A stretch of 52,057 nucleotides of DNA from Candidatus Eiseniibacteriota bacterium (lineage in GTDB: Bacteria; Eisenbacteria; RBG-16-71-46): contig JBGPXY010000001.1 in NCBI GenBank assembly GCA_041492985.1, positions 1-52,057 of the forward strand, in the 5' to 3' direction. How positions within the stretch are numbered: the first letter of the stretch is position 1; each line of letters opens with the position of its first letter. The translations under genes were made by a program, and so were the position numbers. The notes beneath the pieces are model-generated. The model worked only from the letters and a program-made list of their open reading frames with translations. It had not been told where the DNA came from and searched no databases. Below, piece after piece: positions 6,389 to 39,596 of this stretch.

Positions 6389-6489
6389 GGTTCTGCCTCC
6401 TCGCAGACGCCGAGGACTACTGCTCGCCGCCCTGACGAGCTCTCTACAAGTGAATGCGCAGATTGTAGTCCGAGTGCGCAGCGGGGGGT

Positions 6490-6590
6490 GCTTCGTTCCC
6501 CCTCCAGTCCTCTCAAACGACATCACCCCAGCGAGAACAGGTCGCTGGGGCGATTGGCTATCGGTCTGAGGCGATGTCGGTTGCGTGACT
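6490..6590 (+). repeat. Intergenic module, short variant (copy A')
   Basis: Hairpin CCCCAGCGA-GAACAGG-TCGCTGGGG (6526-6550), followed by CGATTGGCTATCGGTCTGAGGCGAT and GTGACTTTGGC. Shares the hairpin-proximal blocks with 16583-16636 and 40402-40450. Confidence 0.55.
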
Positions 6591-6740
6591 TTGGCACGGG
6601 TCCGGTGTAGAGCGAATTCAAAGCCGCAGCAACCTCTGGCGCCATGTGCGGCTCGAGGTCTCGAGCCGCGCGAAGAAGAGATCGCCGCCGCCGGTTCTCC
6701 CAACCCCGTCGCGTCCTCGCCACGGATCTCGTCTCCGACC

Positions 6741-6941
6741 CTGCTACCGTTTGCTACCGTCTCAGAGTCCCAACGAGTCCTCTCGTGTCCCCTCCTGTCC
6801 CCGCAAATGATATCGCCCCAGCGAGGCAACTCGTTGGGGCGATGGGGGGAATCACTTGGGGCGATGCGGCTTGCGCGCTCTCGTTGAAAAACAAGCCTCC
6901 AGGTTTTGCAGACCCTCGCCTTACCACTTGGCTATGCCGCC
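6741..6941 (+). repeat. Intergenic module, full-length copy B, ending in a 40-nt tRNA-Cys 5'-half copy
   Basis: Collinear with 16508-16694. Contains decamers CTGCTACCGT/TTGCTACCGT, GAGTCCTCTCGTGTCCC, decamers CGTGTCCCCT/CCTGTCCCCG, hairpin 1 at 6816-6839, two GGGGCGAT boxes, hairpin 2 at 6868-6897 and TTTGCAGACCCTCGCCTTACC... Confidence 0.7.
6902..6941 (-). pseudogene. tRNA-Cys 5'-half fragment (positions 1-41: acceptor 5' strand, D-arm, anticodon stem-loop); not a functional tRNA
   Basis: 40/40 identity to 4582-4621. Identity breaks inside the 3' strand of the anticodon stem. No T-arm or 3' acceptor strand follows. Confidence 0.8.
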
Positions 6942-7224
6942 TCGGAAGTGTCGCGGGGCGCGGAAGGTAGCACGCCGAAAGAGGGAGCAACAACCTGAGT
7001 GGCCCGGAGGAGTGTGGGTTCAACAAGCGTCCAAGAGCAAGGTTCTCTACGACAGCGGGTCAACCCCACTTCCAGGTAGGCATGGGCGCCGTGAGGGCAT
7101 CATGCGCCGCGTTCGATTCCCCTGGGCCGAGCACGAGAGTTTCCGGGTGCCGGGCGCGCATCGTCCGGAATCGGCTGGCGTCGATCTCTCGCGAGATACG
7201 GGCCAACCGCGTTGCCGATGGGCA

Positions 7225-7707
7225 TCAGGGCTGACGAGGCTCCGCCACGAAGAGCGTCCGCAGGTAGTCCACCACATTCTGGATCTGCCGTTCATTGAGC
7301 GTGCGCCCCCACGGCGGCATCCCCGTCGAGAGCCCGACCGCGCCGCCACCCGAGCGGATCGCGGTCACAAGATCGACATCGGAGTGCCGTGCCTGGAAGC
7401 TAGAATCGGCCAGTGAGCGCGGCCGTGGATCGAGGTTGTAGGCGTTGAACCCGTCGCCCTTCCCTGTTTCTCCGTGGCAGTTCAGGCAATAGTGGCGATA
7501 GAGCGCCCGGCCTTCGCGCGCGTTGTATCCGAGTTCTGGGATCGGCAACGTCGAGGCGGAGTAGATCGCGCTGACCCTGTCGACCGCCGTCGATTCGGCG
7601 GCTCCCGGGATCCGCGACGCGCGCTGGGCGGCCGTGCCCCGGCAGCCACCGGCCCAGGCCAGCACGGCAGCCATCACCACACTCGATGCGCGGAGGCCGC
7701 GCCTCAT
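7225..7707 (-). CDS. Monoheme class-I c-type cytochrome, probable lipoprotein
   Basis: 160 aa with lipobox-like LAWAGGC, the single heme motif CLNCHG and a distal MPPWG Met ligand motif. The ATGA overlap with the upstream gene indicates coupling. Confidence 0.8.
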   Translation of the reverse strand: MRRGLRASSVVMAAVLAWAGGCRGTAAQRASRIPGAAESTAVDRVSAIYSASTLPIPELGYNAREGRALYRHYCLNCHGETGKGDGFNAYNLDPRPRSLADSSFQARHSDVDLVTAIRSGGGAVGLSTGMPPWGRTLNERQIQNVVDYLRTLFVAEPRQP

Positions 7708-9782
7708 GGCCGCTTCCCTCCCGGATTCCCGGCCGACTTCGCGGACGAGGCCGCACCGTGCGCCGCAGTGAGTGACGGGAGCGACGCCACGTACGCGGTC
7801 AGTGCACGGGCATCGACGTCATCGAGACCATAGTCGGGCTCGCGTGCGTCCGGCCTCCAGCGCTGCGGGCCTTTCAGCCAAGAATAGATCCAACCCGTCT
7901 TCAACCGCTGGCCGGCACCGTCGAGCAGCGGACCGTAGAAGCCCCCCTTCCCACCGATCATGTGGCAGGCCTGGCAGCCGTAGCGTTCGTGGAAGAGCTT
8001 CCGTCCCCGCTCGACCTCCTCGGCCGCCGGCGCGGTCGCAAAGATCTCGCCGGGAATGCGATCGTCGCGCAAGACGTTCTCGGCAATGCTGGCGATGAAG
8101 GCCCGTTCCTCATCGGGCATCTGGAGCTGGATCATCCGTTCTTCGAGGATCGGTCTCACCGTGGTCGGCAGCTTGAGATAGCCGGCCAGCCAGCTCTCGC
8201 GTACCTTGCTCCCCTCGGCCGTGAGCGGCGCGGTGGAGATGTCGCCACCGGCTCCGCCGATCTGGTGACAGGACATGCAGCGATACTTGCGCACCAGCTC
8301 CCCGAACCGACCCGGAGGCGTGTAGGCCGTCTCGCGAGCCGGCACCTGATACGCCACCGGCACCGGCGCGCGCCCCATCGAGAGGAGCGCCGTCGTCAGC
8401 GCTTCCGTCTCGTGCTGGGTGAAGCCGAAGCGGGGCATCTTGAGCCCGTCGCGGAACGATCGCGGGTTCGTGACTTTGGCCGCGAGCCAGTCGGGCAGCG
8501 CGCGGGGCAGATCGTTCCGCCGCCCGAAATCGAGCCGGCCGACCGGCTTGTCCCCGATCCCGGTCAGCTCCGGGCCGATCGCCGCACCTTGGGCTTGGCC
8601 GCCGATCTGATGGCAGCCGTTGCAGCCCGAGCGGCGGAAGATGGTTTCCCCCGCCTGCACCACGCGATCGGCGGAGTGGAGGCCGGGCGCCGGGGCCGGC
8701 GCTGACGCATCCGTGAACTCGTCCATCATGTAGTCGGCGAGGTCGGCCACGTCCCGCGCACTGAAGTGATAGCGCGGCATCCGGGTGTCGGGATAGAACC
8801 GCTGGGGATCGGCGAGGAAGGCGAGGAGCCAGCGACGCGTCACTTTGGATCCCATCCCCGAGAGCTCCGGCGCGCTTCCATTCCCCCGCCCTTCGATGCT
8901 GTGGCACGAGATGCAGCGCGAGGTCGAAAACAGAAGCTTGCCATGCTCGGGATCACCCGGCGCGACCACGGCGGGCAAGTCAGCGTCCAGATCGACGCGC
9001 GGCGGGCGGCTCCACAGGAACGCAACCACCGAATCGATCTCCCCCGCCGAGAGCTTGAACTCCGGCATCCAGGTCGCCGGCCGCAGGGACCTGGGCGACT
9101 GGATCCACGCCGCGAGCCACGCCGGATTGGTCTTCTGCGACAGGCCGGCCAGATCGGGGGCTTCGCTCTTCCAGCCCTCGTGACCCGCGACCTTGTGGCA
9201 TCCGAAGCAGCCGACCCGCGTCATCAAGGCCCGTCCCTCCGAGAGCAGCGATGCTTCGGGCACGGCGTCGGCGAGATGGCAGCGGCCGCACGCCGCCTCG
9301 GTGTAGCGCACCGGCAGGATCGGGGAACTCCAGTCGCGCACCTGGCCGTGCGCCTCGGCCATGGTGGTCGCGCGCCCCTGCCCCAGGTGACAGGCGACGC
9401 ATCCGAACCGACCGATATCTCCCGGCGTGTGCGGCGTGCGTGGGTGCTGGCGGAACGGTTCGGGGGCCCCGGCCATGCGGGGCTCCTCGACGCCCAGGTG
9501 GCAGCTGACGCAGCGATCGACGTGGTCGTCGAGCGCCGGTAGCCAGATCTGCTGAACCCCCACCACGCGCGCGCGGGCCTGCTTCAACTCCTTGAGGGAG
9601 GCTGCGGAGCGAAGCAGCCGCTGGCGGTACTCGTTCTGGTAGCGACGGTACTCGCGGAAGTAGTCCTTGATCGGCGACACCGCCAGCACGACGAGAAAGG
9701 CCACGCTGGAGACGCCGAACCAGAACCAGAGCCGGTCGGACGACGGCCCGGGCGGGGTCACAGGTGCACGCCTCCCTGCCAT
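7704..9782 (-). CDS. Membrane-anchored octaheme c-type cytochrome
   Basis: 692 aa from [11 protein letters not shown], with an N-terminal TM helix LWFWFGVSSVAFLVVLAV. Eight CxxCH motifs: CVSCH, CVACH, CGRCH, CFGCH, CISCH, CNGCH, CMSCH, CQACH. The longer ORF-track start (10625) overlaps the cytochrome b genes in another frame, so I rejected it. Confidence 0.8.
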   Translation of the reverse strand: MAGRRAPVTPPGPSSDRLWFWFGVSSVAFLVVLAVSPIKDYFREYRRYQNEYRQRLLRSAASLKELKQARARVVGVQQIWLPALDDHVDRCVSCHLGVEEPRMAGAPEPFRQHPRTPHTPGDIGRFGCVACHLGQGRATTMAEAHGQVRDWSSPILPVRYTEAACGRCHLADAVPEASLLSEGRALMTRVGCFGCHKVAGHEGWKSEAPDLAGLSQKTNPAWLAAWIQSPRSLRPATWMPEFKLSAGEIDSVVAFLWSRPPRVDLDADLPAVVAPGDPEHGKLLFSTSRCISCHSIEGRGNGSAPELSGMGSKVTRRWLLAFLADPQRFYPDTRMPRYHFSARDVADLADYMMDEFTDASAPAPAPGLHSADRVVQAGETIFRRSGCNGCHQIGGQAQGAAIGPELTGIGDKPVGRLDFGRRNDLPRALPDWLAAKVTNPRSFRDGLKMPRFGFTQHETEALTTALLSMGRAPVPVAYQVPARETAYTPPGRFGELVRKYRCMSCHQIGGAGGDISTAPLTAEGSKVRESWLAGYLKLPTTVRPILEERMIQLQMPDEERAFIASIAENVLRDDRIPGEIFATAPAAEEVERGRKLFHERYGCQACHMIGGKGGFYGPLLDGAGQRLKTGWIYSWLKGPQRWRPDAREPDYGLDDVDARALTAYVASLPSLTAAHGAASSAKSAGNPGGKRP

Positions 9783-10459
9783 GGCCAGATCCACTTCCAC
9801 CCGGGACCGCGGAAGAAGGTGCCGATCACCGTAAGGATGACCGCCACGACGACGAACCAGGTCATGATCCAGTCGCTGAGCGTCACGCGGACGAGCCACC
9901 GCCGCCACGAAGCCGGACAGAGCGGCAGCGAGGGCATCACCATCGCCGCATAGAGCAGGACCGTCGGGACGAGCACCGGCCACACGCGCCAGGCCGCGAG
10001 GAAGGCCACGAGCGCCGCCACCACGGTGGTCAGCCACGACAGCCGGCGCCGCGCGGAGGCCTCGAGGAAGCCCCGGTCCTCCAGGTTCGTTCGGAAGTAC
10101 GGGATCACGACCATCGCGACCACAACCAGCCCGGGGATCAGCACGCCGGCGACGACCGGCGGGAAGTAGTGGAGCAACTCTTGAAGTCCGAGGAAGTACC
10201 AGGGCGCCTTTGCCGGGTTGGGCGTGTTGGTCGGATCGGCGATGCCTTCCAGCGGGGAGTCGAAGAACAGCGAGAGCAGCGCCATGGCGATCACGCACAC
10301 CTGCACCAGGATGATTTCGCGCAGGATCAGGTGTGGCGCGGTCATCACCGTCTCCTCGCGATCGACGAGGACGCGGGCCGCGGTGTCCGGGCGCAGGATC
10401 GCGAGCCGCTTGGGCGTCGCCGTCGCGTCGCTGCTCGGCTCGATTCGGTACTCGGTCAT
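9758..10459 (-). CDS. Cytochrome b C-terminal part / subunit IV-like (PetD-like), extended
   Basis: 233 aa from MTEYRIEPS. The PEWY-equivalent motif is [12 protein letters not shown]. It has several TM helices. The ATGA overlap joins it to the upstream cytochrome b gene. Confidence 0.8.
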
Positions 10460-11202
10460 GCGTCCTCCCCGCTTGGGCGAGCCGTGCGGCGCGAGCCAGC
10501 CAGGCCGCCATCCTTGCGGACCCGCCAGAGATGGAGCCCGACCAGGAGCACCAGGGCCAGCGGCAGGATGACGCAGTGGAGGACGTAGAAGCGCAGGAGG
10601 GCGTTCTCGCCGACGATGTTCCCACCCAGCAGCAGATAGCGGAACGGCGGCCCGAGGACCGGCATCGCCTTCACCATGTTCGTGCCGACCGAGACCGCCC
10701 AGATGGCGAGCTGATCCCACGGTAGCAGGTAGCCGGTGTAGCTCAGCAGCAGCGTGAGGAGCAGCAGAACCACGCCGATCACCCAGTTGAACTCGCGCGG
10801 CGGACGGTAGGCCTTGTGATAGAAGACGCGCAGCATGTGCAGGAAGACAATGAACACCATCGCGTGCGCGGGCCAGCGGTGCAGATTGCGAAGGAACATC
10901 CCGTTGCTCACGGTGAACTGCAGCTCCTTCATGTCGTGGTAAGCCTGCGGCACCGAGGGATGGTAGTAGAGCATCAGCAGCAGCCCTGTGGCGGTCAGGA
11001 TGGCGAACAGGATGAGGCCGATGGCGCCCAGGTAGTACGTGCTCGAGCTTTCGAGGCTGCGCCGCCGCACCTTCGCAGGGTGCAGATGCAGGAGGAGACT
11101 CTCCATCACCACCATGACCCGGTTGCGATTCGTAGCCCGGATCCCGTGGCGGACGATGGAGTGCCACACGCGGCTCTCGGTGATCGACGTCGGCAGCCTC
11201 AT
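10456..11202 (-). CDS. Cytochrome b6-like (N-terminal four-helix, heme-binding part of cytochrome b)
   Basis: 248 aa with [25 protein letters not shown] and [26 protein letters not shown], the paired His ligands on helices B and D. The [15 protein letters not shown] motif is present. Confidence 0.9.
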
Positions 11203-11212
11203 CTGGTCCTCA

Positions 11213-11692
11213 TCAGAATCGGTACGTGGTGCCGGCCGGAACCTCCACCGCCGTGTCCACGATCAGCTCTCCCTTTTCGGAGAGGCTCATCTGCAGCCAG
11301 CGGAGAGGGCGTGGCGCGGGACCGGCCACGACGTCGCCGGCGAGCGTGAACTGGCTGCCATGGCAGGGGCAGGCGATGATGTTCCGGTCTGGCTGGAAGC
11401 GCGTGATGCATCCGAGATGTGTGCACACGGCCGACAGCGCGCGAAATCCTTCCGTAAGCCGGATGACGTAGACGCGCTGTTCGACGTTGGTCACCACCGA
11501 CCCGACCTCGATCGCGTCGGGTGGCCCGGCGGAGAACGCCGTCGGCGGCTCGAACAGCACGCGCGGCCGCAGGAAATCGACCAGCACCACGCCGGCGCCT
11601 GCGGCCGCCGCTGCGCACGCCGCCAGCCCGGCGGCGACGCAGAAATCGCGGCGCGTGATCCCCGGTGCCTTGGCGGCGTCGGCATCAGACAT
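11213..11692 (-). CDS. Rieske [2Fe-2S] protein with Tat signal
   Basis: Twin-arginine [11 protein letters not shown]. Cluster boxes CTHLGC and CPCHGS. The start at MSDADAAK overlaps the stop of the upstream flavoprotein gene by 8 nt. Confidence 0.9.
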
Positions 11693-13559
11693 GTGCCGGC
11701 TCGAGCAGCTGGAACTGCTCCATGGTGATGGTCCCCGCCGGGCAGCGCTCGGCACACAGCCCACAGCGGATGCAGATCGTCTCGTCTTTGATCAGCGCCG
11801 TGCCCGCGCCGCCTCCCTGCGCGAGCAGCGCCGCCGCGGCCTCCCCGTGTTCGGCGCGCACGGCGTCCCCCATCGCCGGATCGGCGACGATCTCGGACAG
11901 GGGCACGAAGGTGATGCAGTTCTCCGGGCACACGTCGGCGCAGCCGCCGCACAGGATGCACTCCGTGCCCTGTTCCGGGTCTTCGTGGAACACGGTGTTG
12001 ACCCAGCAGTGGAGGCAGCGCGATGCCTCGAGCCGGGCCGACACCTCGGTGAAGCAGTGCTCGATCTCGGCGATGCCGACACGCCGCTCGATCGGCAGGA
12101 CGGGCGGTCGCTGGCGCGGCACGCCCTCGAAATCCAGCGCCCGCCGGTAACCCGGCAGCGGTTCGATGAACACCTCTACCGGCGGACCCGGGGTCGCGAC
12201 GCCACGCAGAAAGCCGTCAATCGATGCCGCGGCCCTCTTCCCGTCCGCAACGGCCTCGATCGCAATGCGTGGTCCGAACGCGGCGTCACCCCCGGCGTAG
12301 ATGCCGGGGGCCGTGGTGGCGAGGGTCGTCGGATCCACCTGGAGCGTGCCGCGCGGTGTGACCGCAACTCCGTCCTTCGGTCGCAGGAATGACAGATCAC
12401 AGGCCTGACCGATCGCAAGCACGATGGTGTCGGCTGCGATCGCCAGCTCGGTGCCTGGGACAAAGGTCGGGTTGAAGCGCCGCTGGCCATCGAAGACTGC
12501 GGAGCACTCGATGGTTTCGAGGCCTGTCACGCGACCCGCCTCGCCGAGGATGCGCTGCGGCCCGCGCCCGGCATGGATGACGATGCCCTCCCGCTGCGCC
12601 TCATGGATCTCGTCGCGGTCGGCCGGCATGGCCTCGAGAGATTCGAGACACACGATGTGGACCTCCTTGGCACCGAAGCGGATGGCCGAGCGTGCGACGT
12701 CGAACGCCGTGACGATGTTGAGGCCCGGATGGATGACCTCGTCCCGAAGGGGTGTCCGCAGGGCGGAGCGCGCCACGTCTACGGCCACGTTTCCACCGCC
12801 CACGACGAGCACGCGCCGGCCGAGCTCGACGCGGTAGCCCATGTTGACGTTGAGCAGGAAGTCGACGCCCTTGAGCACCCCGTCCAGGTCGGCGCCGGCG
12901 ATCTCGAGGTCGCGGCTGCGCTGCGCGCCCGGGGCGAGGAACACCGACCGAAAACCCTGCTCGCGCAGATCCGACAGGAGGAAATCGCGGCCCAGGCGCA
13001 TCCCCACCTTGAGCTCGACGCCGAGGTTCAGGATCGCGTTGATCTCGAGCTTGATCAGCTCGCGCGGCAGTCGATACTCTGGGATGCCGAGACGCAGCAT
13101 CCCCCCCGGCACCGCCTGGGCCTCGAAGATGGTCACCGGATATCCGAACAGCGCCAGGTCGTGGGCGGCCGCGAGCCCTGCCGGGCCCGCGCCGATGATC
13201 GCCACGCGGTCCTGCGGGTGGCGCAGCAGGCGCTCGCCGTAGATCTCCCGGAGCAGATCCACGTCCATCATGCTCTCGACGCCGAAACGCTCGGTGACGA
13301 AGCGTTTCAGCGCCCGGATGGCAATCGGCTCGTCGAGCGCCCCACGGCGGCATGCCGCCTCGCAGGGCGCGGCGCAGATCCGGCCGCAGATGGATGCGAG
13401 CGGATTCGGTCGTCGCGCCACGGCGTAGGCCTCGCGGTACTTCCCCTCCGCGATCAGCGCCACGTAGCGCCCGGCCTCGGTGCCGACTGGGCAAGCCTTG
13501 CAGCAGGGGAAGTTGCTCTCCAGCCAGGCCCGGTCGACCCGGCGATCAGACGTTGACAC
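11685..13559 (-). CDS. GltD-like (glutamate synthase small-subunit family) NAD(P)-dependent FAD/Fe-S oxidoreductase with C-terminal 2x[4Fe-4S] ferredoxin domain
   Basis: 624 aa. N-terminal Cys cluster CCKACP...CGRICAAPCEAAC. Dinucleotide folds IIGAGPAGLAAA and VVGGGNVAVDVA. C-terminal CILCGGCADVCP and CIRCGLCAERCP. GTG start. Confidence 0.85.
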   Translation of the reverse strand: MSTSDRRVDRAWLESNFPCCKACPVGTEAGRYVALIAEGKYREAYAVARRPNPLASICGRICAAPCEAACRRGALDEPIAIRALKRFVTERFGVESMMDVDLLREIYGERLLRHPQDRVAIIGAGPAGLAAAHDLALFGYPVTIFEAQAVPGGMLRLGIPEYRLPRELIKLEINAILNLGVELKVGMRLGRDFLLSDLREQGFRSVFLAPGAQRSRDLEIAGADLDGVLKGVDFLLNVNMGYRVELGRRVLVVGGGNVAVDVARSALRTPLRDEVIHPGLNIVTAFDVARSAIRFGAKEVHIVCLESLEAMPADRDEIHEAQREGIVIHAGRGPQRILGEAGRVTGLETIECSAVFDGQRRFNPTFVPGTELAIAADTIVLAIGQACDLSFLRPKDGVAVTPRGTLQVDPTTLATTAPGIYAGGDAAFGPRIAIEAVADGKRAAASIDGFLRGVATPGPPVEVFIEPLPGYRRALDFEGVPRQRPPVLPIERRVGIAEIEHCFTEVSARLEASRCLHCWVNTVFHEDPEQGTECILCGGCADVCPENCITFVPLSEIVADPAMGDAVRAEHGEAAAALLAQGGGAGTALIKDETICIRCGLCAERCPAGTITMEQFQLLEPAHV

Positions 13560-13566
13560 CGGGCGC

Positions 13567-14157
13567 CTACTTCTTCATCGCGAAGTCGGCCGTCGTGATC
13601 CCGGCGACCGTCACCGGTCTGGCAGCCTCCGCCTTGAACTTCGGGTGCCACACCTTCACTGTGTAGGCACCGTCCGGCAGATTCTTGATGGAGTAGGCGC
13701 CGGTCTTCTCGGTGACTGCGAACCAAGGGGTCGGCAGCGCGATGATGAAGCCCTCCATCTCGGCGTGCACCTTGCACAGGAGCGTGGCGTTGCACCGCGT
13801 CTTGAAGGTGTAGCTGCGAGTCTGACCTTGCGGCCAGCTTCCCAGATTGAACTGCTCGCAGCACTTGTCCGGCGAAAAGACGTTGTGGAGAACCTGGTCG
13901 CCATTGAGGAAGTCGACCGTGGTTCCCTGCTGGACCGGCAGGACGTGCGGCGTGAACACCAGGTTCTGCTGGTTCATCCTCGCGTGGGCCGTCGGGGCCG
14001 GGAACGTCCTCCCGGGAATCGCGTCGATGTAGACCACCGCGTCCCCATTGGTCTTCGCGCCCATGACCGTGACGACGCCCTTCAACTCGCCCGCCGGGGC
14101 GGCCGAAGCCGCCGCCAGCAGGATCACGGCGCATCCCACGCCAGATAGAACTCGCAT
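13567..14157 (-). CDS. Secreted cupredoxin (type-1 blue copper) fused to a CarboxypepD_reg-like beta-sandwich
   Basis: Carries a signal peptide. Putative copper ligands are H in VLHNVF and CKVHAEM (C-x2-H-x2-M). The C-terminus has TGAYSIKNLPDGAYTVKVWHPKF. Confidence 0.8.
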   Translation of the reverse strand: MRVLSGVGCAVILLAAASAAPAGELKGVVTVMGAKTNGDAVVYIDAIPGRTFPAPTAHARMNQQNLVFTPHVLPVQQGTTVDFLNGDQVLHNVFSPDKCCEQFNLGSWPQGQTRSYTFKTRCNATLLCKVHAEMEGFIIALPTPWFAVTEKTGAYSIKNLPDGAYTVKVWHPKFKAEAARPVTVAGITTADFAMKK

Positions 14158-14191
14158 ACCGTTTCCTTTCGTGAGTCGGCCGGTGACGAAA

Positions 14192-15514
14192 TCAGAACCC
14201 GATGATGACGCCGAGCGTGCCTCCCTCGTTCGTGAATTTGCCCCCCGGCTCCTTCACCCATGAGCTGGCGAGGAACGACTTGACGTTGGCACGGGCGAGG
14301 CCGTTGACGGTCAAGGACACCCGGTCGGTCTGCTCGTCGGTGATCTTGAACGACTCCCACCGCCCGGCCGGGATCAGCCACGGATATGCCACCCAGGACA
14401 GTTCCGCGAACTGGCTCTTGATCGAGACGTCGACGATCGTCGGATCGGCCACGAACAGCCGGTCGTCCTTGCGGTCCGTATACCCAGCGCGGGCCATCAC
14501 GTCGTGGTAGTTCACGGCCACGTCACCCCCGGCCATCCGAAATGGATCCTGTGAGTTGGGATCCAGCGGATCTCCTCCCTCGAGCAGGCCCTTGCCCTTG
14601 TAAATGAAGCCGGAGAGCGAGAGGGAGGTTTCGCTCCAGGGCTGCGGGTTGGCGGGCAGCGCCGCCTCGGCGGCGCCGCTGGGAGCTCCGTCGAACGGCA
14701 GCCCCCCGAACTTGTAGGCCAGGCGGGCGTACACATCCTTCGAATGGTCGCCCAGGCTTCCCGACCCCTCGACCAGACCGGCGTTGTAGAGGACGCGGTG
14801 CTGGAGCATCCCGTAGGCCTCGAGGCCCTGCTGGAAGCCGTCCGGGGCCCAGGGGTTGTCGCCGACGGGCTGTGTTAGGACCAGCGGTTCCTGGTTCAGG
14901 ATGGAGCGATGCGAGGACACCAGCATGATCCCCGGTTCGAAAGAGCCGACCTTGAACTGCAGCGCGGGCGAATCGAGAGGGCGTACCAGGAGGTTGACCC
15001 GCTCCATCTCGGTGGCGATCTCGCCCCCGTCGCGGGCAAACACAACCGATCCCCAGAAGGAGAAATGCTCGTCGAGGGTCCCGGCGCCCAGAATCTCGAG
15101 CTCGCCGCCCATGCCGCCGAAGGTGACGGTCTTGGTCGTGGGATCGTAGTCGACCGTGCTCGTATAGAGGACGGCGACGGGCGGCATTCCGGGGATCTCT
15201 CCCGGCCATACCGCGTGCGGCCAGAGCTTCTTGTAGCCTTCCGCGCCCAGAGAGACGGGCGGGATCTTGGTCATCGCCGCATCGTTGCCGGCCGGGAACC
15301 GATAGCCGTTCTGCCGGAACGCTTCACCGAAGGGAGTCAGGGCGGGGATCGCAACGTGGCAGGTTTGACAGCTCGTCTGGTATTTCCGCGCGAATGCCGG
15401 AATCGTATAGGCGTTCCGCGGCGCGAGGAGCGCCGCCGAAAACAGCACGATCAACGCGAGCGCGAACACCGTGCGCACGTCGAAAACCACCCGCTTCGAT
15501 CCTTCTCGTGACAT
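14192..15514 (-). CDS. Outer-membrane beta-barrel-like protein with an N-terminal single c-heme motif (fused cytochrome-porin architecture, Cyc2-like in organisation)
   Basis: RBS GAGGAGGGG. Has an N-terminal hydrophobic signal and one CxxCH (FARKYQTSCQTCH) about 50 aa in. About 380 aa of alternating beta-strand-like sequence follow. The C-terminus is ...GVIIGF, and a terminal Phe is the OMP beta-signal. Confidence 0.65.
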   Translation of the reverse strand: MSREGSKRVVFDVRTVFALALIVLFSAALLAPRNAYTIPAFARKYQTSCQTCHVAIPALTPFGEAFRQNGYRFPAGNDAAMTKIPPVSLGAEGYKKLWPHAVWPGEIPGMPPVAVLYTSTVDYDPTTKTVTFGGMGGELEILGAGTLDEHFSFWGSVVFARDGGEIATEMERVNLLVRPLDSPALQFKVGSFEPGIMLVSSHRSILNQEPLVLTQPVGDNPWAPDGFQQGLEAYGMLQHRVLYNAGLVEGSGSLGDHSKDVYARLAYKFGGLPFDGAPSGAAEAALPANPQPWSETSLSLSGFIYKGKGLLEGGDPLDPNSQDPFRMAGGDVAVNYHDVMARAGYTDRKDDRLFVADPTIVDVSIKSQFAELSWVAYPWLIPAGRWESFKITDEQTDRVSLTVNGLARANVKSFLASSWVKEPGGKFTNEGGTLGVIIGF

Positions 15515-15553
15515 AGCCCCTCCTCGTTTCAGTGGGACAATCGAACGAGGACG

Positions 15554-15582
15554 AGCCTAGAAGGACGCCGCGGGCGTCACAA
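15554..15582 (-). promoter_or_regulatory. Candidate sigma70-type promoter of the respiratory operon
   Basis: The minus strand reads TTGTGA-N17-TAGGCT, about 40 nt upstream of the ATG at 15514, in a locally AT-richer stretch. Confidence 0.3.
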
Positions 15583-15604
15583 TCAGCGGAATGAATCATT
15601 TCTT

Positions 15605-15622
15605 CTGATGCAGATGCATCAG
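15605..15622. promoter_or_regulatory. 18-bp palindrome CTGATGCA-GA-TGCATCAG, a candidate HTH-dimer (LuxR-type) operator or the terminator of the regulator gene
   Basis: The half-sites are perfect 8-bp inverted repeats, flanked by ATCAT/ATGAT. This is the most AT-rich patch of the region. It is centred about 35 nt upstream of the putative -35 and lies 30 nt downstream of the PAS-LuxR stop. Confidence 0.35.
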
Positions 15623-15651
15623 ATGATCGCCCAGTCGGGGAAGGGGGCAGG

Positions 15652-16302
15652 CTAGAGGAGATGTGTGCGGAGCGCCAGCGAGACCGCTTCGAGCTTGCTG
15701 TGAACGTCGAGCTTGCGGAGGATGTTCTGGACGTGGTTGCGCGTCGTGGCGACACTGATGAAAAGTGAGTCGGCGATGCCCTGAGTGCTGGCGCCCTCAG
15801 CCAGGAGCCGCAGGATCTGGATCTCTCGCGAGGTCAGGGCCGGGGATGTCGCCGACGGCGCATCACCGGTCACGGGTCGGGACACCGGCGGCGTGGGCTG
15901 ATCGGTCAGGATCCGACGGATCAGCGCGCTGGCCTCGCGCTGGCGGTCGACTTTCGCGAGGAAGTGGACGAGCGTGTACTGGCGTGGGCGCGGCCCCGGC
16001 AACACCACGATCGAGAAGTGGGCCGGTATGAGCTCGCCCGACTCGGTACGGACGTCGAGTTCGAAGCGCCGCGCCGTTTCGTGCCGTTCGACCATGAACG
16101 TCAGGGAGCACTGGCGGTCGCAGAAGCGGTTGCCAAAGACATCACGACCACAGATGATCTCGTGGCAGGACTTGCCGAGCACCTGGGAGGCGTGGTAGCC
16201 GAGCAACTCCTGGGCACCCTTGTTCCAGATGGCGATGCGCCCCTTCTCGTCAGTCGCAAAAGCGGCGCCGCCAGCGCGGGCGACCACATCCAGTGGGTCC
16301 AC
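15652..16302 (-). CDS. PAS-domain LuxR/GerE-family transcriptional regulator
   Basis: 216 aa with a GTG start. N-terminal PAS (GRIAIWNKGAQELLGY...) carries a Cys cluster CHEIIC...C..QC. The C-terminus has LTSREIQILRLLAEGASTQGIADSLFISVATTRNHVQNILRKL. Confidence 0.85.
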   Translation of the reverse strand: MDPLDVVARAGGAAFATDEKGRIAIWNKGAQELLGYHASQVLGKSCHEIICGRDVFGNRFCDRQCSLTFMVERHETARRFELDVRTESGELIPAHFSIVVLPGPRPRQYTLVHFLAKVDRQREASALIRRILTDQPTPPVSRPVTGDAPSATSPALTSREIQILRLLAEGASTQGIADSLFISVATTRNHVQNILRKLDVHSKLEAVSLALRTHLL

Positions 16303-16507
16303 GGTCAGCTCGCCCTCTCACCTCTGCGTTCGAATGAGTCTCCCGCTGCGGTTCGCCCAGCGGTAGCGCGCACCAGAGCCGATCGTCCCACATCGTCCCG
16401 CGAGACGACAGCGGGATCGTTGGGCCCGGGCCCGTCGGGGAGCGCATGCGCTCGTCCTCTGAGCCAAGGCGCCGCAGACAGACTTGACTCCATCCTAGTC
16501 CCCCCAC

Positions 16508-16694
16508 TTGCTACAATTTGCTACCGTCTCAACTTCCTCATGAGTCCTCTCGTGTCCCTTCGTGTCCCCTCGAAGGATATCTCCCCAGCGAAGGCAACTC
16601 GCTGGGGCGATTGGGCTATCGGTCTGGGGCGATATCGCTCGCGGGCTCGGCGTTGAAGAAAATCGCGCCGAAATTTGCAGACCCTCGCCTTACC
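16508..16694 (+). repeat. Intergenic module, full-length copy C, ending in a 21-nt tRNA-Cys fragment
   Basis: Collinear with 6741-6941. Decamers at 16508-16527 and 16551-16570. Hairpin 1 at 16583-16607, hairpin 2 at 16647-16671, and TTTGCAGACCCTCGCCTTACC at 16674-16694. Confidence 0.7.
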
Positions 16695-16830: not shown

Positions 16831-18014
16831 TCAGACCTCCATCACCGCGGCCGTAATGACGTTGATGAACAGGTCTCCACCCCAGTGCGGTGACCCCACC
16901 CTCGCCCCTTGGTAGCTTTGAACCGAGAAATAGCACCCGACGATCTCATGAACCGGGTCCACCCATAAGGACATGCCGCCGGAGCCGCCATGGCAGAACG
17001 AGGCTGGCGAGTAAAGCGATCCGTCTCGCAGACCTCTCTTGGTCCCATGGATGTCCCAACCGAGACCCCACCCCGCCTCGGGGAACAGCTCGTCGCCGTC
17101 CCTTGCCGGGATCCCGGGAATCTGGTTTCGCGTCATCTCGGTAACGGACGCAGGGCTCAAGATCCTGACATCGCCGCGGCAGCCGCGATCGAGAAACATC
17201 TGGGCGAAGATCGCCATATCCATCGCAGTCGAGTACGCGGCGCCGTTGGCCCAGGGGGTGTGCTGAAATGTCGGGGTTTCGAGCCCGGGCTCTGAACCGA
17301 GGCTCACGGCCCACCCCGCCTCCATCCGGCGACGCACCAGTCGGGATCGCGAAGACTCGCGTACGCCGAATGACGTGTCGATCATGCGCAGTGGCTCAAA
17401 GATTCTCTTCGCTGCGAACTCCGACACGGATTGCCCGCTCACCCGGCGCACGATCTCGCCCAGCAGGCGATAGCCATAGTCGCAGTAGGACATCTCTACA
17501 CCCGGCGGCTTCGACAATGGCGCCTGATAGCGCAACCCCAACCACTCGTGCATGTAGGGGGGCTGGTCGCCCACGGGGGGAGGAGCGGCGAGCGTGCCGC
17601 GATTCTGCTTCACATACGTTTCGAGCTGCTCATCGTTGAACCCCGAGGTGTGCGTCAGGAGATGGTGGACCATGACGGAGCTCTTGCCTTCGCCCTGGAA
17701 CTCCGGGATGTATTCGGCCACCGGTCGGTTGAGTCCCAGCAACCCGTCTTCCACCAGAATCATGACCGCGGTGGCCGCAATCGGCTTGGTGATGGAAGCC
17801 AGGGGGAAGATCGTGTCCCTCTCGACCCGTGGAGCACCGGGCTCGGGCGTCAGGTGCCCGTGTGCCTCGTGAAGGACAACGATGCCGCGTCGCGCGGCAA
17901 GAACCACCAGCGCTGGCGTGCGCTCTTGCGCTACCAGTCGCGCCGCCAGATCTGCGGCGACACGCACGCGATCGGGCGACATCCCGACCTCTTCGGGGGT
18001 TCCCGTGCGCAGGC

Positions 18015-18018
<4 letters not shown>
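16831..18018 (-). CDS. Serine hydrolase, beta-lactamase/transpeptidase-like fold (class C / EstB-like)
   Basis: 395 aa with the SxxK motif ASITKP. The TTG start overlaps the kinase stop as TTGA. The N-terminus MSLRTGTPEEVGMSPDRVR parallels the paralog MKLRDGDPEEAGMSAERIR. Confidence 0.85.
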
Positions 18019-21662
<3,644 letters not shown>

Positions 21663-21896: not shown

Positions 21897-23078
21897 ATGA
21901 AGCTGCGCGATGGCGATCCGGAAGAAGCTGGGATGTCCGCGGAGCGGATCCGTCGACTGAGCGGGCTTGCGAAAGGCTGGGTGGATCAGGGAATGACACC
22001 TTCCCTGGTCGTTCTCGTCGCCCGAAAGGGCGTTGTCGTTCTCCACGAAGCGTTCGGCAAGCTGACTCCCGAGCCGGGCGCGCCGCCGCTTCCGAAGGAT
22101 GCGATCTACCCGATCGCCTCGATCAGCAAGCTGTTCACCGCGACGGCGGCCATGATTCTCGTCGACGACGGCCTGCTCGGGTTGCATCGGCCAGTCCAGG
22201 AGTACATGCCCGAGTTTGTGGGCCAAGGCAAGGACGCGGTCATGGTCCACCACCTGCTCACCCATACGTCGGGTTTGCGGGGCGAAGACCTGGATGAGCT
22301 CGTTCGGCGCAAGCTCGGCTCTGGCGAGATCCAGCCTTCTCCAGATGCAGTTCATCCCGGGCTCAACGAGTTCCCAGCGCTTCAGTATTTCTCCCAGACG
22401 CACGATGCTCCGCTCAGCTACCGACCGGGTGCCGAGATGTCGTATTGCGGCTATGGCTACCGACTGCTTGCCGAGATCATCGCGCGAGTGAGCGGAAGCA
22501 GCCTTGCCGAATTCGCGCAGGCGCGAATCCTCGGTCCACTCGGATTGGGCGATACCTTCTACGGTCTGCCAGACGGCCGGCGGGCTCGGCAGGTGCGCCG
22601 CGGACCCGAGGCTCCTCTTGCGCTTCTCGATGATCCCACCACCGCGCCATGCTTTGCCGGGATGGCCGGCATGTTCTCGACCGCTCGCGACCTCGCGGCG
22701 TTCGGGCGGATGATCTTGAATCGGGGCCAGTACGGTGCGGCGAGGATCGTCAGCGCCGCGTCAGTCGCCGAGATGACTCGAAACCAGGTTCCGGGCGTCC
22801 CCGGATCCTACCGGGGAGAGGTATTCCCGGAATCGTCCTGGGGGCTTGGCTGGGACGTCCACGGCACCAAGCGGAGCCTCCGGGAGGCATCGCTCTTCTC
22901 ACCCCGAGCGGTGAGAATGGGCGGCGGTGGCGGCACCAACTTCTGGGTCGATCCGGAGCATGAGCTGGTCGGCGCCTACTTGTCGGTCCAGGTGCATCCG
23001 GGGAGCAAGGAATCCTCTCCCGGGTGGCGGGCGGACGTGTTCGTCGACGCCGCGACGGCGGCGATCGTCGAGCCATGA
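21897..23078 (+). CDS. Serine hydrolase, beta-lactamase-like fold (paralog of 16831..18018)
   Basis: 393 aa with the SxxK motif ASISKL. It is collinear with the other copy along its whole length by eye. Transcribed divergently from the kinase gene. Confidence 0.85.
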   Translation: MKLRDGDPEEAGMSAERIRRLSGLAKGWVDQGMTPSLVVLVARKGVVVLHEAFGKLTPEPGAPPLPKDAIYPIASISKLFTATAAMILVDDGLLGLHRPVQEYMPEFVGQGKDAVMVHHLLTHTSGLRGEDLDELVRRKLGSGEIQPSPDAVHPGLNEFPALQYFSQTHDAPLSYRPGAEMSYCGYGYRLLAEIIARVSGSSLAEFAQARILGPLGLGDTFYGLPDGRRARQVRRGPEAPLALLDDPTTAPCFAGMAGMFSTARDLAAFGRMILNRGQYGAARIVSAASVAEMTRNQVPGVPGSYRGEVFPESSWGLGWDVHGTKRSLREASLFSPRAVRMGGGGGTNFWVDPEHELVGAYLSVQVHPGSKESSPGWRADVFVDAATAAIVEP

Positions 23079-23311
23079 ATCCTCAGCCAGCGCGACTACC
23101 GCCCCGGCCCACCCACGCGCAGGCCAACACATGCCGCGTCGTTTGAACGTGGAACCGTTCGACGCCTGAGCGTTTGCGCGCCATTCGCGTGCGGCGGCGC
23201 CGGCGTTCGCGACCCGATCCCGCGCAATGGCCGCGAGGAACCCATAAACGCCGGCGGACCTCGCCCGACAGGGAGTGTGGCAGTCCCCGCACCCTTTCGT
23301 GGAGGCTCGTC

Positions 23312-25720
23312 ATGCGTCGCACCCGTATTGCCGCCGTGGTTCTGCTCGCCACCTTGGCCGCCGTCGCCAGCGCTCGATACGCCCGCGCCGACGATGCGGC
23401 GGGCTCGTTCTCCGCCACCAACAATCCGTTCGGCCGCTGGAGCTACGGCTACACGAGCGACCGCGGCGGCACTTTCACGCTGTTCGACACGCACGCCCCG
23501 GACGGGGCGGGGCTCGACGTGTGGAAGAAGGTCGGGACGCAGGCGCAGGTCGCCCACAACGGGACGGGCGCACCCAAGCTGGTCGGCGGCACGGTGTACA
23601 CGCTGAACGGCGGGCTGAATCTGACGCCGGGCGCCAACTCCGAGTGGTCTGTCGCGCGGTGGACGGCGGCCGCGGCGGGGAGCTATGCCATCAACGCTCA
23701 CTTCTTCCCCCGGGCGCTGGCCAACGCGAGCGGAGGCGCCGCCGAAGTGGCGGTGCTGCTCAACGGCGCGGTCGTGTTCGATCGGTGGATCCAGTTTCAG
23801 CTCGGGATCAGCACCGCATCCCTCGCGACCACGCTGCCCCTGAACCCGGGAGACAAGCTCGACTTCACGGTCGGCAACGCGGGTGACGGGAACAATCTCG
23901 ACGTGATCGGGCTCGACGCCACCGTGAACGCGATCGCTCCCGACCCGGGACCGGCGGGGCTCGTCTTCTCGTTCGGAGGCCAGCGTTACGTCGGTTGCAA
24001 ATGGGGCTCGTGCTTCGAGTCGATCGCGTTCGATCCGGTCAACCGCCGGCTCGCCTCGAAGAACTTCATCCGCGACCTGTGCGGCAACCAGGTTTCGGCC
24101 GGACCCGACGAGCAGCCGGGCCTGTCGTGGGACTCGAAGACCGGGACGTACTGGCAGGTCACGAATGACCGCACCATTCGGCGCTGGAGCAGCGCGGGCG
24201 TGCTGGTGGACACCGTGTTCACGATCCCGCTCACCTTCACGGTGCCGACCACCGGACCGGACACGCTGGAGGCGGTGAAAGGGATCGCGACCGATTCCAG
24301 CTTCGTCTACCTGGTGGACGCGGGCCCGGTGCCCGGCGCCATCCCGTCGTGCGAGTGGTTCAAGTTCAGCCGTACCGGCACGCCGGTGAAGTCGTCGAAG
24401 GGCACGAACTTCAATGCCAACCTCGGGCCTGGTCCCGACGCGACGGTGGACGACATCTGCTACGTGCCGTTCTCGTCACCGGTGCTGCCGGGCCGGCTGG
24501 TGGTCGCGATCGAGCACACCGGGCTGCAGGTGATCGACACCAATGGCAACTTCGTCTCGAGCTTCCGCTGGACCGATCAGGGATACGCGACCCGACCGCT
24601 CGCCGCACTCGCCGGTCTCGCGATCGATCCTCTGACGGGCAACTTCTATCTCGGCGACAACGACAAAGGCGCTGCGCTGGTGTTCACGCGCATCGTGCCT
24701 CAAGGCGCGGCCTCGTATACCGTCGGTGGCATCGACGGTTCGGGCGCGCTCGGGGCGGACCTCAAGAACCCGACTCCGGGTTGCGATCTTCCGCTGTGGT
24801 CGCCGTATGGGGTGCCGGCGAACAGCAGCGGCAACTTCTTCGGTCTCGCCTATCGGACCGTTGACCGATCCGCCTACACGCTGGACTTCGGCACCCCGGC
24901 CGATCTGTGGCGCTTCGATCCGCGCATCGGCTCCGGAGCGCGCGTCGGGCCGACCGGCATCGACGGCTCGTGGAGCCTCGCCTACGACAGCGAGCGCGAC
25001 GTGCTCTACGGTGCTGTCGGATTCCCCGCCTCACGGGTCGTGACCATCGACCCGGCGAGCGGTAGCACCGTTTCGCTGCCAAATCCATCCGGGTACTCGT
25101 TCGGGTCCAGCACCGACCTGGCCTGGAACTCGATCGACAAGAAGCTCTACGCGGTCGACGCCTCGGTGAGCCCTCGCCACCTGCTCCGCATCGATCGCGA
25201 CACGGGTATCGGCGTGGTGGTGGGCAACACGACCGCGCGCAACGGCGGGCTCGATTTCGACGCCTCGACCGGGAAGCTCCAGGCCTACGACGGGACGACC
25301 GGCAACCTGGTTTCGATCGATCCCGCGACCGGAACTACCACCCCCCTGAACACGCTGCAGCGACAGGCAGGCTTCGAGGGCCTGGCGGTGGTGCCGGTCC
25401 CCTCAGCCCCGGCCGTCGCCGTGTTCGAGCTGCCTCCGCCAACGATGTCGGAGGCCATGGTCGCGGTCCCCAACCCGACCTCCGGCGCCACGCGCCTCGA
25501 CTTCTCGCTGCCGGCGGCCGAGACCGTGACGATCGGCGTCTACGACGTCGCGGGCCGGCGCGTCCGCGAAGTGGCATCGGGCCGTTATGAGGCGGGGCCG
25601 CATCGGGTGAGCTGGGATGGTCGCGACGGCGACGGCCGTCCGGCGCCGAGCGGGGTCTACTTCGCGCGAGTTGACATGGGCACGCGGACCCGCGTCGCGC
25701 GCCTGGTCGTCTCTCGGTGA
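23312..25720 (+). CDS. Secreted repeat/beta-propeller-like protein with FlgD-Ig/T9SS-type C-terminal sorting domain
   Basis: RBS GGAGG. Signal peptide MRRTRIAAVVLLATLAAVASARYARA. The C-terminal 80 aa are PNPTSGATRLDFSLPAAETVTIGVYDVAGRRVREV...SGVYFARVDMGTRTRVARLVVSR. Confidence 0.75.
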   Translation: MRRTRIAAVVLLATLAAVASARYARADDAAGSFSATNNPFGRWSYGYTSDRGGTFTLFDTHAPDGAGLDVWKKVGTQAQVAHNGTGAPKLVGGTVYTLNGGLNLTPGANSEWSVARWTAAAAGSYAINAHFFPRALANASGGAAEVAVLLNGAVVFDRWIQFQLGISTASLATTLPLNPGDKLDFTVGNAGDGNNLDVIGLDATVNAIAPDPGPAGLVFSFGGQRYVGCKWGSCFESIAFDPVNRRLASKNFIRDLCGNQVSAGPDEQPGLSWDSKTGTYWQVTNDRTIRRWSSAGVLVDTVFTIPLTFTVPTTGPDTLEAVKGIATDSSFVYLVDAGPVPGAIPSCEWFKFSRTGTPVKSSKGTNFNANLGPGPDATVDDICYVPFSSPVLPGRLVVAIEHTGLQVIDTNGNFVSSFRWTDQGYATRPLAALAGLAIDPLTGNFYLGDNDKGAALVFTRIVPQGAASYTVGGIDGSGALGADLKNPTPGCDLPLWSPYGVPANSSGNFFGLAYRTVDRSAYTLDFGTPADLWRFDPRIGSGARVGPTGIDGSWSLAYDSERDVLYGAVGFPASRVVTIDPASGSTVSLPNPSGYSFGSSTDLAWNSIDKKLYAVDASVSPRHLLRIDRDTGIGVVVGNTTARNGGLDFDASTGKLQAYDGTTGNLVSIDPATGTTTPLNTLQRQAGFEGLAVVPVPSAPAVAVFELPPPTMSEAMVAVPNPTSGATRLDFSLPAAETVTIGVYDVAGRRVREVASGRYEAGPHRVSWDGRDGDGRPAPSGVYFARVDMGTRTRVARLVVSR

Positions 25721-38178: not shown

Positions 38179-38192
38179 GGCGGTTCTCCTTT

Positions 38193-39554: not shown

Positions 39555-39564
39555 GGGTAACTCT

Positions 39565-39580
39565 CCTAACGGCGTTAAGG
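39565..39580. promoter_or_regulatory. Second copy of the TetR operator-like palindrome, overlapping the tolC-like RBS
   Basis: CCTAACGGCGTTAAGG has a perfect 11-nt core palindrome, TAACGGCGTTA. It is nearly identical to the site in the tetR promoter at 40280-40296. Confidence 0.5.
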
Positions 39581-39596
39581 GCCAGGTCAAAAAAAA

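Follow-up and report, generated by a model that had tools for sequence, protein, structure and literature searches.

We report that a gene at positions 14192 to 15514 (minus strand) of a 52,057-nucleotide stretch of DNA from Candidatus Eiseniibacteriota bacterium (assembly GCA_041492985.1, contig JBGPXY010000001.1, positions 1 to 52,057; the whole stretch is called the window here) encodes, judging from its sequence, a divergent member of the Cyc2 family of fused cytochrome-porins and not the founder of a new family. Its 440-residue product has the architecture and the signature of that family, and both its heme site and the cassette of redox genes that it heads are conserved. We consider it probable that the protein is a Cyc2-family outer membrane monoheme electron conduit. 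Most likely, it serves to exchange single electrons with extracellular iron, for which we infer a direction of flow below.

The cytochrome-porin and its family

The gene and its product comprise the following features.

14192..15514, minus strand: Cyc2-family fused cytochrome-porin gene, an ATG-started open reading frame (ORF) of 440 amino acids plus stop
15404..15514, minus strand: signal-peptide-like N terminus, residues 1 to 37, with putative cleavage before IPAF
15185..15403, minus strand: monoheme cytochrome module, residues 38 to 110, IPAFARKY-QTS-CQTCH-VAI-PAL-TPFGEAFRQNGYRFP
15356..15370, minus strand: heme c attachment site CxxCH, residues 49 to 53, CQTCH
14195..15184, minus strand: predicted 16-strand beta-barrel porin domain, residues 111 to 440, ending in Phe (DSSP on the AlphaFold2 model, and Foldseek)

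The G+C content at third codon positions (GC3) of the ORF is 0.85, matching the bias of real genes in the window, where the overall G+C content is ∼68%. The N terminus consists of a basic stretch (MSREGSKRVVFDVR) and a hydrophobic stretch (TVFALALIVLFSAALLA) followed by PRNAYT/IPAF (the slash marks the putative cleavage site), and AlphaFold2 models a helix at residues 13 to 29 within it; A-x-A/IPAFARKY is the usual mature end among homologs. Cys49 and Cys52, both in CQTCH, are the sole cysteines of the protein, and its C terminus reads ...GVIIGF.

Homologs are numerous. A word-indexed search returned at least 948 of them, none named for function, and a profile search with HMMER over 1.84 billion representatives returned 4352 clusters at an E value of ≤1e-3 and 421 at ≤1e-30. 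Named relatives come from "Candidatus Eisenbacteria" (74% identity), Acidobacteriota, Polarisedimenticolia, and Calditrichota. Conservation was counted over 264 retrieved family sequences, 253 of them with an intact N terminus. CxxCH is kept in all 253, with exactly one copy in 251, and the 11 of 264 sequences without it are truncated gene calls that begin inside or past the heme region; the heme motif is not fortuitous. A terminal Phe is found in 209 of the 264. In an alignment of 46 diverse homologs (A1), which was also used for the family profile, the heme module is the most conserved block: P39, R43, Y45, T47, C49, T51, C52, H53, P57, F62, G63, G70, and P74 are invariant, and L59 is conserved at ≥90%.

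Keffer et al. (2021) characterize Cyc2 by AXPXFAR[Q/K][T/Y], a CXXCH five residues past the Arg, and a PXL that begins four residues past the His of CXXCH (PMC8406198). They call the motif upstream of CXXCH unique to Cyc2 and screened the sequences for their Cyc2 tree for a length of ≥365 residues, CXXCH, and PXFAR[Q/K][T/Y] (PMC8406198). Around its heme, the window protein reads T-I-P-A-F-A-R-K-Y-Q-T-S-C-Q-T-C-H-V-A-I-P-A-L. This is the Cyc2 signature with identical spacing; the sole misfit is the first position, with a Thr in place of the Ala that most homologs have there. The screening form PXFAR[Q/K][T/Y] is matched exactly, the length of 440 residues exceeds 365, and PXL is present in CQTCH-V-A-I-P-A-L. 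The strict Cyc2 pattern fits 180 of 253 relatives, and the remainder deviate by conservative changes.

Cyc2 genes for comparison were collected by a DNA-pattern scan for PxFARQ[T/Y]x3CxxCH in one genome per GTDB species. The scan gave 120 loci, including Sideroxydans, Gallionella, Gallionellaceae, Zetaproteobacteria, Mariprofundaceae, and Acidithiobacillus metagenome-assembled genomes (MAGs), from which 92 complete proteins of ≥365 residues were extracted. In profile-profile comparisons with hhalign, A1 matched a Sideroxydans/Gallionella/Zetaproteobacteria Cyc2 profile at 99.0% probability (E value of 5.5e-18 over 220 columns, to residue 267) and an Acidithiobacillus-type Cyc2 profile at 99.4% probability (E value of 1.9e-21 over 280 columns). 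Past the heme, P-x-L-x-x-F-G-(E/R)-A-F-(R/K)-x-x-G-(Y/F) is common to all sets; its FG(E/R)AF(R/K)xxG(Y/F) block lies outside the search pattern.

By sequence, proteins of the FARQY type bridge the gap between the window family and other Cyc2: five of them (L070, L061, L095, L123, and L038) match the A1 profile from end to end. Their sources are a delta-proteobacterial MAG, two Acidobacteriota MAGs, another Deltaproteobacteria MAG, and Geothermobacter hydrogeniphilus HR-1. The last is a cultured isolate, whose protein (L123) scores 209 bits against the A1 profile and aligns by BLASTP at 26% over 395 residues; a literature search for Cyc2 in Geothermobacter found no description.

Characterized members of the Cyc2 family include Cyc2PV-1 of Mariprofundus (Cluster 1), Cyc2 of Acidithiobacillus ferrooxidans (Cluster 2), Cyt572 of Leptospirillum, and Cyc2 of "Ca. 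Mariimomonas ferrooxydans" (Cluster 3). With these, the window protein shares a single N-terminal CXXCH, PXFAR[Q/K][T/Y] and PXL, a length of ∼400 to 500 residues, and a predicted 16-strand porin resembling OprP; where they have a signal peptide, it has a signal-peptide-like N terminus. It differs from Cluster 1/2-type Cyc2 in having FARKY-TSC-TCH as its family motif instead of FARQTG; identity to that type is ∼35 to 45% over the ∼55-residue heme module, and the barrel has no pairwise-detectable similarity. Cyc2 homologs have already been recorded in Eisenbacteria, Calditrichota, and Acidobacteriota by surveys that used FeGenie. A vent metagenome study reports Cyc2 homologs in these three groups and others, with ∼75% in cluster III, and places none but other taxa in clusters I and II (PMC9769843); by elimination, the homologs from the three groups fall in cluster III. 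This survey, together with the distance of the window protein from the Cluster 1 and Cluster 2 sets, suggests that it probably belongs to Cluster 3, which has very long branches.

The AlphaFold2 model of the protein has a mean predicted local distance difference test (pLDDT) score of 79.4 and a predicted template modeling (pTM) score of 0.77. It predicts a barrel of 16 long beta-strands at residues 113 to 439, with pLDDT mostly at 80 to 97, and leaves the first ∼110 residues poorly defined. Foldseek against the PDB gave 211 matches at an E value of ≤1e-3. The top matches, at 1e-10 to 1e-8, are 16-strand general and specific porins, including Omp32 (1e54), OmpT/OmpU, PhoE, and OmpF, and OprP (2o4v) stands at rank 12. 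Cyc2PV-1 was likewise modeled as a 16-strand porin on its structural homologs OprO/OprP (PMC8406198).

Two other kinds of barrel were considered. No FadL-type 14-strand barrel is found among the best 50 of the 211 Foldseek matches, and a MtrB/PioB-type barrel is ruled out by the strand count of 16 and by the absence of an adjacent decaheme partner gene: Pfam and NCBIfam scans of the neighboring genes found no MtrA/PioA-like decaheme gene next to the Cyc2-like gene. MtrB, PioB, and MtoB are also outer membrane barrels that pass electrons across the outer membrane, but they have 26 to 28 strands, are heme-less, and enclose a separate decaheme protein, whereas the predicted window barrel has 16 strands and a fused heme.

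Much of this had been anticipated in an earlier note made on the same DNA from the letters alone. The 440-residue ORF with exactly one CxxCH and the C-terminal Phe that it described are there, and the residue pattern and the model support its signal-like N-terminal helix and its predicted barrel. Its layout of a fused monoheme cytochrome-porin also stands, because a barrel fold is predicted and the heme motif is universally conserved: of the two outcomes that the note had named as speaking against it, the predicted fold is not a nonbarrel one, and the opposite of homologs that commonly lack CxxCH was found. The note went astray in holding that the heme surroundings do not show the Cyc2 motif, since the signature of Keffer et al. 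is present, and the HMM-HMM comparison with Cyc2 that it proposed gave the high probabilities reported above.

The surrounding cassette and its conservation

The Cyc2-like gene is flanked on the same strand by a regulator gene upstream and by seven genes downstream.

15652..16302, minus strand: PAS-LuxR transcription regulator, 137 bp upstream of the Cyc2-like gene (Pfam PAS_9, GerE)
13567..14157, minus strand: periplasmic protein of 196 residues with a blue-copper (cupredoxin) domain and a CarboxypepD_reg-like domain (Pfam Copper-bind, CarboxypepD_reg)
11685..13559, minus strand: GltD-like NAD(P)-binding FAD/Fe-S flavoprotein, 624 residues (Pfam Pyr_redox_2, Fer4_20, Fer4_7)
11213..11764, minus strand: Rieske [2Fe-2S] protein (Pfam Rieske)
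10456..11202, minus strand: cytochrome b6-type subunit (four-helix), 248 residues (Pfam Cytochrome_B, 147.6 bits)
9758..10459, minus strand: subunit IV-like membrane protein, 233 residues (Pfam Cytochrom_B_C, 25.1 bits)
7704..9782, minus strand: membrane-anchored octaheme cytochrome c, 692 residues (8 CxxCH; Pfam Cytochrom_C, four times)
7225..7707, minus strand: small monoheme cytochrome c, 160 residues (Pfam Cytochrome_CBB3)

The seven downstream genes are separated by gaps of ≤34 bp or overlap, and the Cyc2-like gene comes first, as the earlier note had proposed for an operon. A promoter and terminator scan of positions 6800 to 16600 found nothing above shuffle expectation; the operon structure is read from gene spacing and synteny. 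A weak terminator-like hairpin at 14197 to 14216 (minus strand), overlapping the Cyc2-like gene at its end, is probably due to chance, as the scan gave fewer such sites than shuffled sequence.

The copper protein matches Pfam Copper-bind at 23.1 bits (cutoff, 21.2) and CarboxypepD_reg at 32.9 bits. Its copper domain is plastocyanin-like, and the type 1 copper ligand set H91/C128/H131/M134 is invariant in six orthologs; by analogy with known systems, this protein is the likely redox partner of the Cyc2-like protein. The flavoprotein matches the NCBIfam model PRK12771, an NAD(P)-binding protein, at 437 bits. The true start of the Rieske protein probably lies further downstream, as orthologs have 149 to 173 residues and the ORF, taken from its listed start, shares 80 nucleotides with the upstream gene. 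Its best solved relative is 9rk4 (E value of 1.9e-29, 106 bits; the next match has 65 bits), which is Kuste4569 of Kuenenia stuttgartiensis, measured at +303 mV. The window Rieske protein reads CPCHGSQF, with the potential-raising Ser present and Phe where Kuste4569 has Tyr.

The cytochrome b6-type subunit, the subunit IV-like protein, and the octaheme cytochrome find their best or near-best NCBIfam matches in ExtP (265 bits, below the cutoff of 290), ExtQ (52 bits, also below its cutoff), and ExtS (100.4 bits against a cutoff of 100), respectively. The monoheme cytochrome scores 25.8 bits against the NCBIfam model of Leptospirillum cytochrome 579, which is too weak to interpret given the cutoff of 280. 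In Leptospirillum, cytochrome 579 acts as the periplasmic partner of Cyt572, a Cyc2 homolog.

We examined ten contexts of family members, counting as one the two contigs that encode the same Cyc2-like protein, P0054. The cassette is present in eight of the ten: the window, P0054 (60% identity), P0080 from an Acidobacteria MAG (50%), P0087 (43%), P0096, P0107, and P0116 (38 to 40%), and L095 from Solibacteraceae, where it is visible only through subunit IV, at which the fetched 8-kb locus ends. In the P0107 cassette, the b-type cytochrome is a single product of 448 residues, and the cytochrome of the c type is shorter. Of the cassette, L061 and L070 retain just the Cyc2-like and copper-protein genes in the 8 kb fetched. 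P0099 has the copper protein ∼2.3 kb upstream, plus a multiheme cytochrome, on a context with ∼1.4 kb of sequence downstream of the gene. In all ten contexts, the copper-protein gene is adjacent to, or ≤3 kb from, the Cyc2-like gene. Near the Cyc2-like gene of G. hydrogeniphilus HR-1, we found neither a cupredoxin gene nor a Rieske cassette.

The PAS-LuxR regulator occupies the same position in the window, in both P0054 contigs (L001 and L002), and in L003 and L128. In L004, a more distant cassette, a histidine kinase, a sigma-54 activator, and a response regulator are found in its place. The two P0054 contigs (L001, 10442 to 12832; L002, 3700 to 6172) encode an identical Cyc2-like protein; on the 2.45-Mb contig L001, the copper-protein and flavoprotein genes are fragments (63 and 387 residues) with an opposite-strand ORF between them, and both are intact in L002. 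The fragmentation is probably a frameshift error in the long assembly and not biology.

Cassette linkage was not seen at most Cluster 1/2-type loci. A FARQTG-type Cyc2 gene adjoins GltD-like, Rieske, and cytochrome b genes in a Desulfobaccales MAG (L045, 2083 to 8000), and another adjoins a GltD-like flavoprotein gene in a Ca. Binatia MAG (L057, 4413 to 7998); therefore, the association of Cyc2 with NAD(P)-Rieske/b genes recurs outside the window subfamily. Full-text literature searches found no description of a Cyc2, Rieske/b6, and cupredoxin linkage. The Tenderiales Uet cluster, which contains a cupredoxin, was set aside as a different system.

The cassette resembles several known systems in part. 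The gene set downstream matches that of the Kuste4569-4573 complex in having an NAD(P) oxidoreductase, a Rieske protein, a b6 subunit, a subunit IV, and an octaheme c, a comparison with Kuenenia that was made by sequence for the Rieske protein only. The K. stuttgartiensis clusters Kuste4569-4574 and Kustd1480-1485 likewise encode an NAD(P) flavoprotein, a Rieske protein, b6, subunit IV, and hexa- or octaheme c (PMC12954380). The window cassette differs from them in lacking the octaheme subunit that resembles hydroxylamine oxidoreductase (HAO) and in having the Cyc2-like, blue-copper, and monoheme c proteins; its host is presumably not an anammox bacterium and would have no anammoxosome.

In Geobacter sulfurreducens, the extHIJKLMNOPQS cluster places an outer membrane porin gene, extI, with genes for the Rieske protein ExtO, the cytochrome b ExtP, the membrane subunit ExtQ, and the cytochrome c ExtS. 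ExtI is porin-like by its published description, in which the cytochromes of the cluster are separate proteins (ExtKL, M, N, and S). Unlike the window, the ext cluster as listed in the paper has no NAD(P) flavoprotein or cupredoxin. The rus and petI operons of A. ferrooxidans follow the same logic, with Cyc2, a blue-copper protein, c cytochromes, and a Rieske/b complex linked to the supply of NAD(P)H. In the window, by comparison, everything lies in one cassette, the complex is of the b6 type with its own NAD(P) module, the copper protein is plastocyanin-like and CarboxypepD_reg-like instead of a rusticyanin, and there are no cox genes in the cassette. Compared with the characterized Cyc2 members, the neighborhood of the window gene has a cupredoxin and an NAD(P)-linked Rieske/b6 complex in place of cyc1/cox/rus.

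Direction of electron flow and alternative explanations

The Cyc2 proteins characterized so far reside in the outer membrane, carry one c heme, and oxidize Fe(II). This activity has been demonstrated for A. ferrooxidans Cyc2, Leptospirillum Cyt572, and Cyc2PV-1 (208 mV; PMC8406198), and in 2026 for the Cluster 3 Cyc2 of a Nitrospirota. By analogy, the window protein may be located in the outer membrane, be loaded with heme, and have Fe(II) as its substrate. After Sec export and signal peptide cleavage, one heme c would be attached at C49/C52 and ligated by H53. The C-terminal 330 residues would fold as the 16-strand outer membrane barrel, with the heme module in or next to its periplasmic opening. 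Dissolved Fe2+ would enter the pore, as is proposed for Cyc2 on account of its one heme and narrow barrel (PMC8406198), and would pass one electron to the heme. The adjacent blue-copper protein would be the periplasmic electron acceptor, in analogy with the rusticyanin of the rus operon, and would share a high-potential periplasmic pool with the monoheme and octaheme cytochromes c. That pool would be wired to a Rieske/cytochrome b6 complex bearing the cytoplasmic NAD(P)-binding flavoprotein. Because the copper protein has invariant H/C/H/M ligands and the Rieske protein keeps its Ser and is closest to Kuste4569 (+303 mV), such a high-potential chain is compatible with a Cyc2 heme at about +200 mV.

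If the protein is a Cyc2-family conduit, we lean toward Fe(II) oxidation, though with limited confidence; outward flow has a smaller but appreciable chance, and the remainder goes to other roles. Inward flow is favored by analogy, through precedent and the likely potentials: about +200 mV for Cyc2, and +303 and +335 mV for the Rieske relatives.

Several observations weigh against this reading, some of them bearing on the homology itself. The heme-module match is partly circular, because the comparison set was chosen by motif. As a control, we repeated the profile comparison with the heme module removed from both sides: the barrel alone then matched the barrels of Clusters 1 and 2 at 19 to 25% probability (P ∼1e-3), whereas Cluster 1-type and Cluster 2-type barrels matched each other at 94%. 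By these barrel scores, the window subfamily is farther from Clusters 1 and 2 than those are from each other, in line with published remarks on weak porin conservation and on the very long branches of Cluster 3, and, the heme-less comparison being marginal, we do not claim homology of the barrels on sequence grounds. Homology to Cyc2 is thus argued mainly from the ∼60-residue heme module and the shared architecture. In the AlphaFold2 model, which includes no heme, the heme module has a pLDDT of 40 to 60, and its position relative to the pore is unreliable. Other points concern function. For homologs in Cluster 3, Keffer et al. term it "most uncertain." The cassette contains no gene for a terminal oxidase or nitrate reductase. 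A full-length relative occurs in G. hydrogeniphilus HR-1, and this organism is an Fe(III) reducer. Finally, the proposal for Rieske/b6 complexes of the Kuenenia type is that they split quinol electrons by bifurcation, with NAD(P)+ and a high-potential acceptor as the two destinations, and push electrons out along the high-potential branch (PMC12954380); were this the case here, Cyc2 would be a sink and not a source.

Electron flow in the opposite direction is the alternative that we take most seriously, as a lesser but appreciable possibility. Here, the Rieske/b6 complex would bifurcate quinol electrons, sending one uphill to NAD(P)+ via the flavoprotein and the second downhill from the Rieske protein through the octaheme c and the copper protein or monoheme c to the Cyc2-like heme and on to an extracellular oxidant, e.g., chelated Fe(III). 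The high-potential branch would leave the cell through the barrel, which would take the role proposed in Kuenenia for the HAO-like Kuste4574. The specific affinity of the Rieske protein to Kuste4569 fits this arrangement, as does the presence of subunits of the Kuste4569-4573 type in a cassette from which the HAO-like sink is absent, with Cyc2 and a cupredoxin in its place; the bifurcation proposal needs a high-potential acceptor. The porin gene extI of Geobacter, an Fe(III) reducer, likewise adjoins a related ExtO/P/Q/S Rieske/b module, and the Geothermobacter relative points the same way. However, all Cyc2 proteins tested so far oxidize Fe(II), and a path from a Rieske protein at about +300 mV to a Cyc2 heme at about +200 mV and then to Fe(III) minerals would be uphill or barely favorable at neutral pH. 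Bifurcation itself is still a proposal for the anammox complexes (PMC12954380).

The two other alternatives dispense with Cyc2 ancestry or with respiration, and we regard both as improbable. The earlier note had suggested an independent or very distant family of heme-loaded outer membrane channels. Convergent origin of a family unrelated to Cyc2 would fit with the fact that no Pfam or NCBIfam model matched the 440-residue protein and that a sequence search of the PDB gave nothing usable (matches at E values of >0.3 are noise), and also with the marginal similarity of the barrel alone to Cyc2 barrels. Against it stand the full Cyc2 signature at identical spacing with further shared residues downstream, the 99% profile-profile probability in alignments that run on into the barrel, and the FARQY intermediates (L070, L061, L095, L123, and L038), which match the family profile at full length; the porin domains of accepted Cyc2 members are poorly conserved anyway (PMC8406198). 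We therefore consider an independent family very unlikely. Of the wording in the note, "independent" does not hold, whereas "very distant" is apt for the barrel taken alone. Scarcely more probable is a porin whose heme has no energy role and serves, e.g., to sense or detoxify iron or another redox-active solute. Many organisms that are not known as iron oxidizers carry Cyc2 homologs, authors in the field warn against deducing function from homology, especially in Cluster 3, and a PAS-LuxR regulator is conserved beside the gene. Yet the gene is tightly packed with seven genes for respiratory-type redox proteins, an arrangement conserved across phyla, which argues for a role in electron transport.

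Returning to the Cyc2-family conduit, we put forward one further idea, tentatively: that the cassette forms a module complete in itself, by which the redox chemistry of extracellular iron would be coupled directly to the NAD(P)H pool. The gene order is PAS-LuxR regulator, Cyc2-like, blue-copper, NAD(P) flavoprotein, Rieske, b6, subunit IV, octaheme c, and monoheme c. In such a module, which we think possible but doubtful, the Cyc2-like heme and the copper protein would form the high-potential arm of an anammox-type bifurcating (in reverse, confurcating) Rieske/b6 complex.

The host, the rest of the window, and implications

Proteins bearing a C-terminal secretion sorting domain are also encoded in the window, along with a TolC-like OEP and a resistance-nodulation-division (RND) pump, so the host would be a diderm, which favors the outer membrane reading. 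Large secreted proteins with FlgD_ig and Por_Secre_tail sorting domains lie at 23174 to 25720 (plus strand), 31267 to 34005 (plus strand), and 34085 to 39590 (minus strand). Together with the RND/OEP genes, the secretion-domain proteins may point to the Fibrobacteres-Chlorobi-Bacteroidetes (FCB) group.

Elsewhere, a long ORF at 4949 to 6829 (minus strand) has a lipoprotein-like N terminus, an extremely glycine-rich C-terminal half with GGxGG runs, and a GC3 of 0.75; its true start is probably internal, as its upstream part looks noncoding. Two paralogous ORFs of ∼395 residues with SxxK, at 16831 to 18018 (minus strand; SITK) and 21897 to 23078 (plus strand; SISK), resemble beta-lactamases or penicillin-binding proteins by eye and flank a gene for a 1215-residue Ser/Thr kinase-type regulator (18015 to 21662).

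Taken alone, the window gene is one more Cyc2 homolog in phyla that have already been surveyed, and it changes little. Its neighborhood matters more: the role of Cluster 3 Cyc2 in organisms not known to oxidize iron is an acknowledged question, and discussion of NAD(P)-linked Rieske/b6 complexes has so far centered on anammox bacteria, in which the mechanism is still a proposal. The cassette of Cyc2, blue-copper, and NAD(P)-Rieske/b6 genes suggests a testable hypothesis that would link extracellular iron with the quinone and NAD(P)H pools. The coupling is a worthwhile lead, drawn so far from synteny. The cassette may serve as a simpler system for studying the proposed bifurcation, and the relative in G. 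hydrogeniphilus HR-1 could serve as an experimental handle. If the tentative module exists, non-anammox phyla, among them those of the Eisenbacteria-like organisms, Acidobacteriota, and others in which the cassette is found, would gain a route from Fe(II)/Fe(III) to NAD(P)H without reverse complex I.

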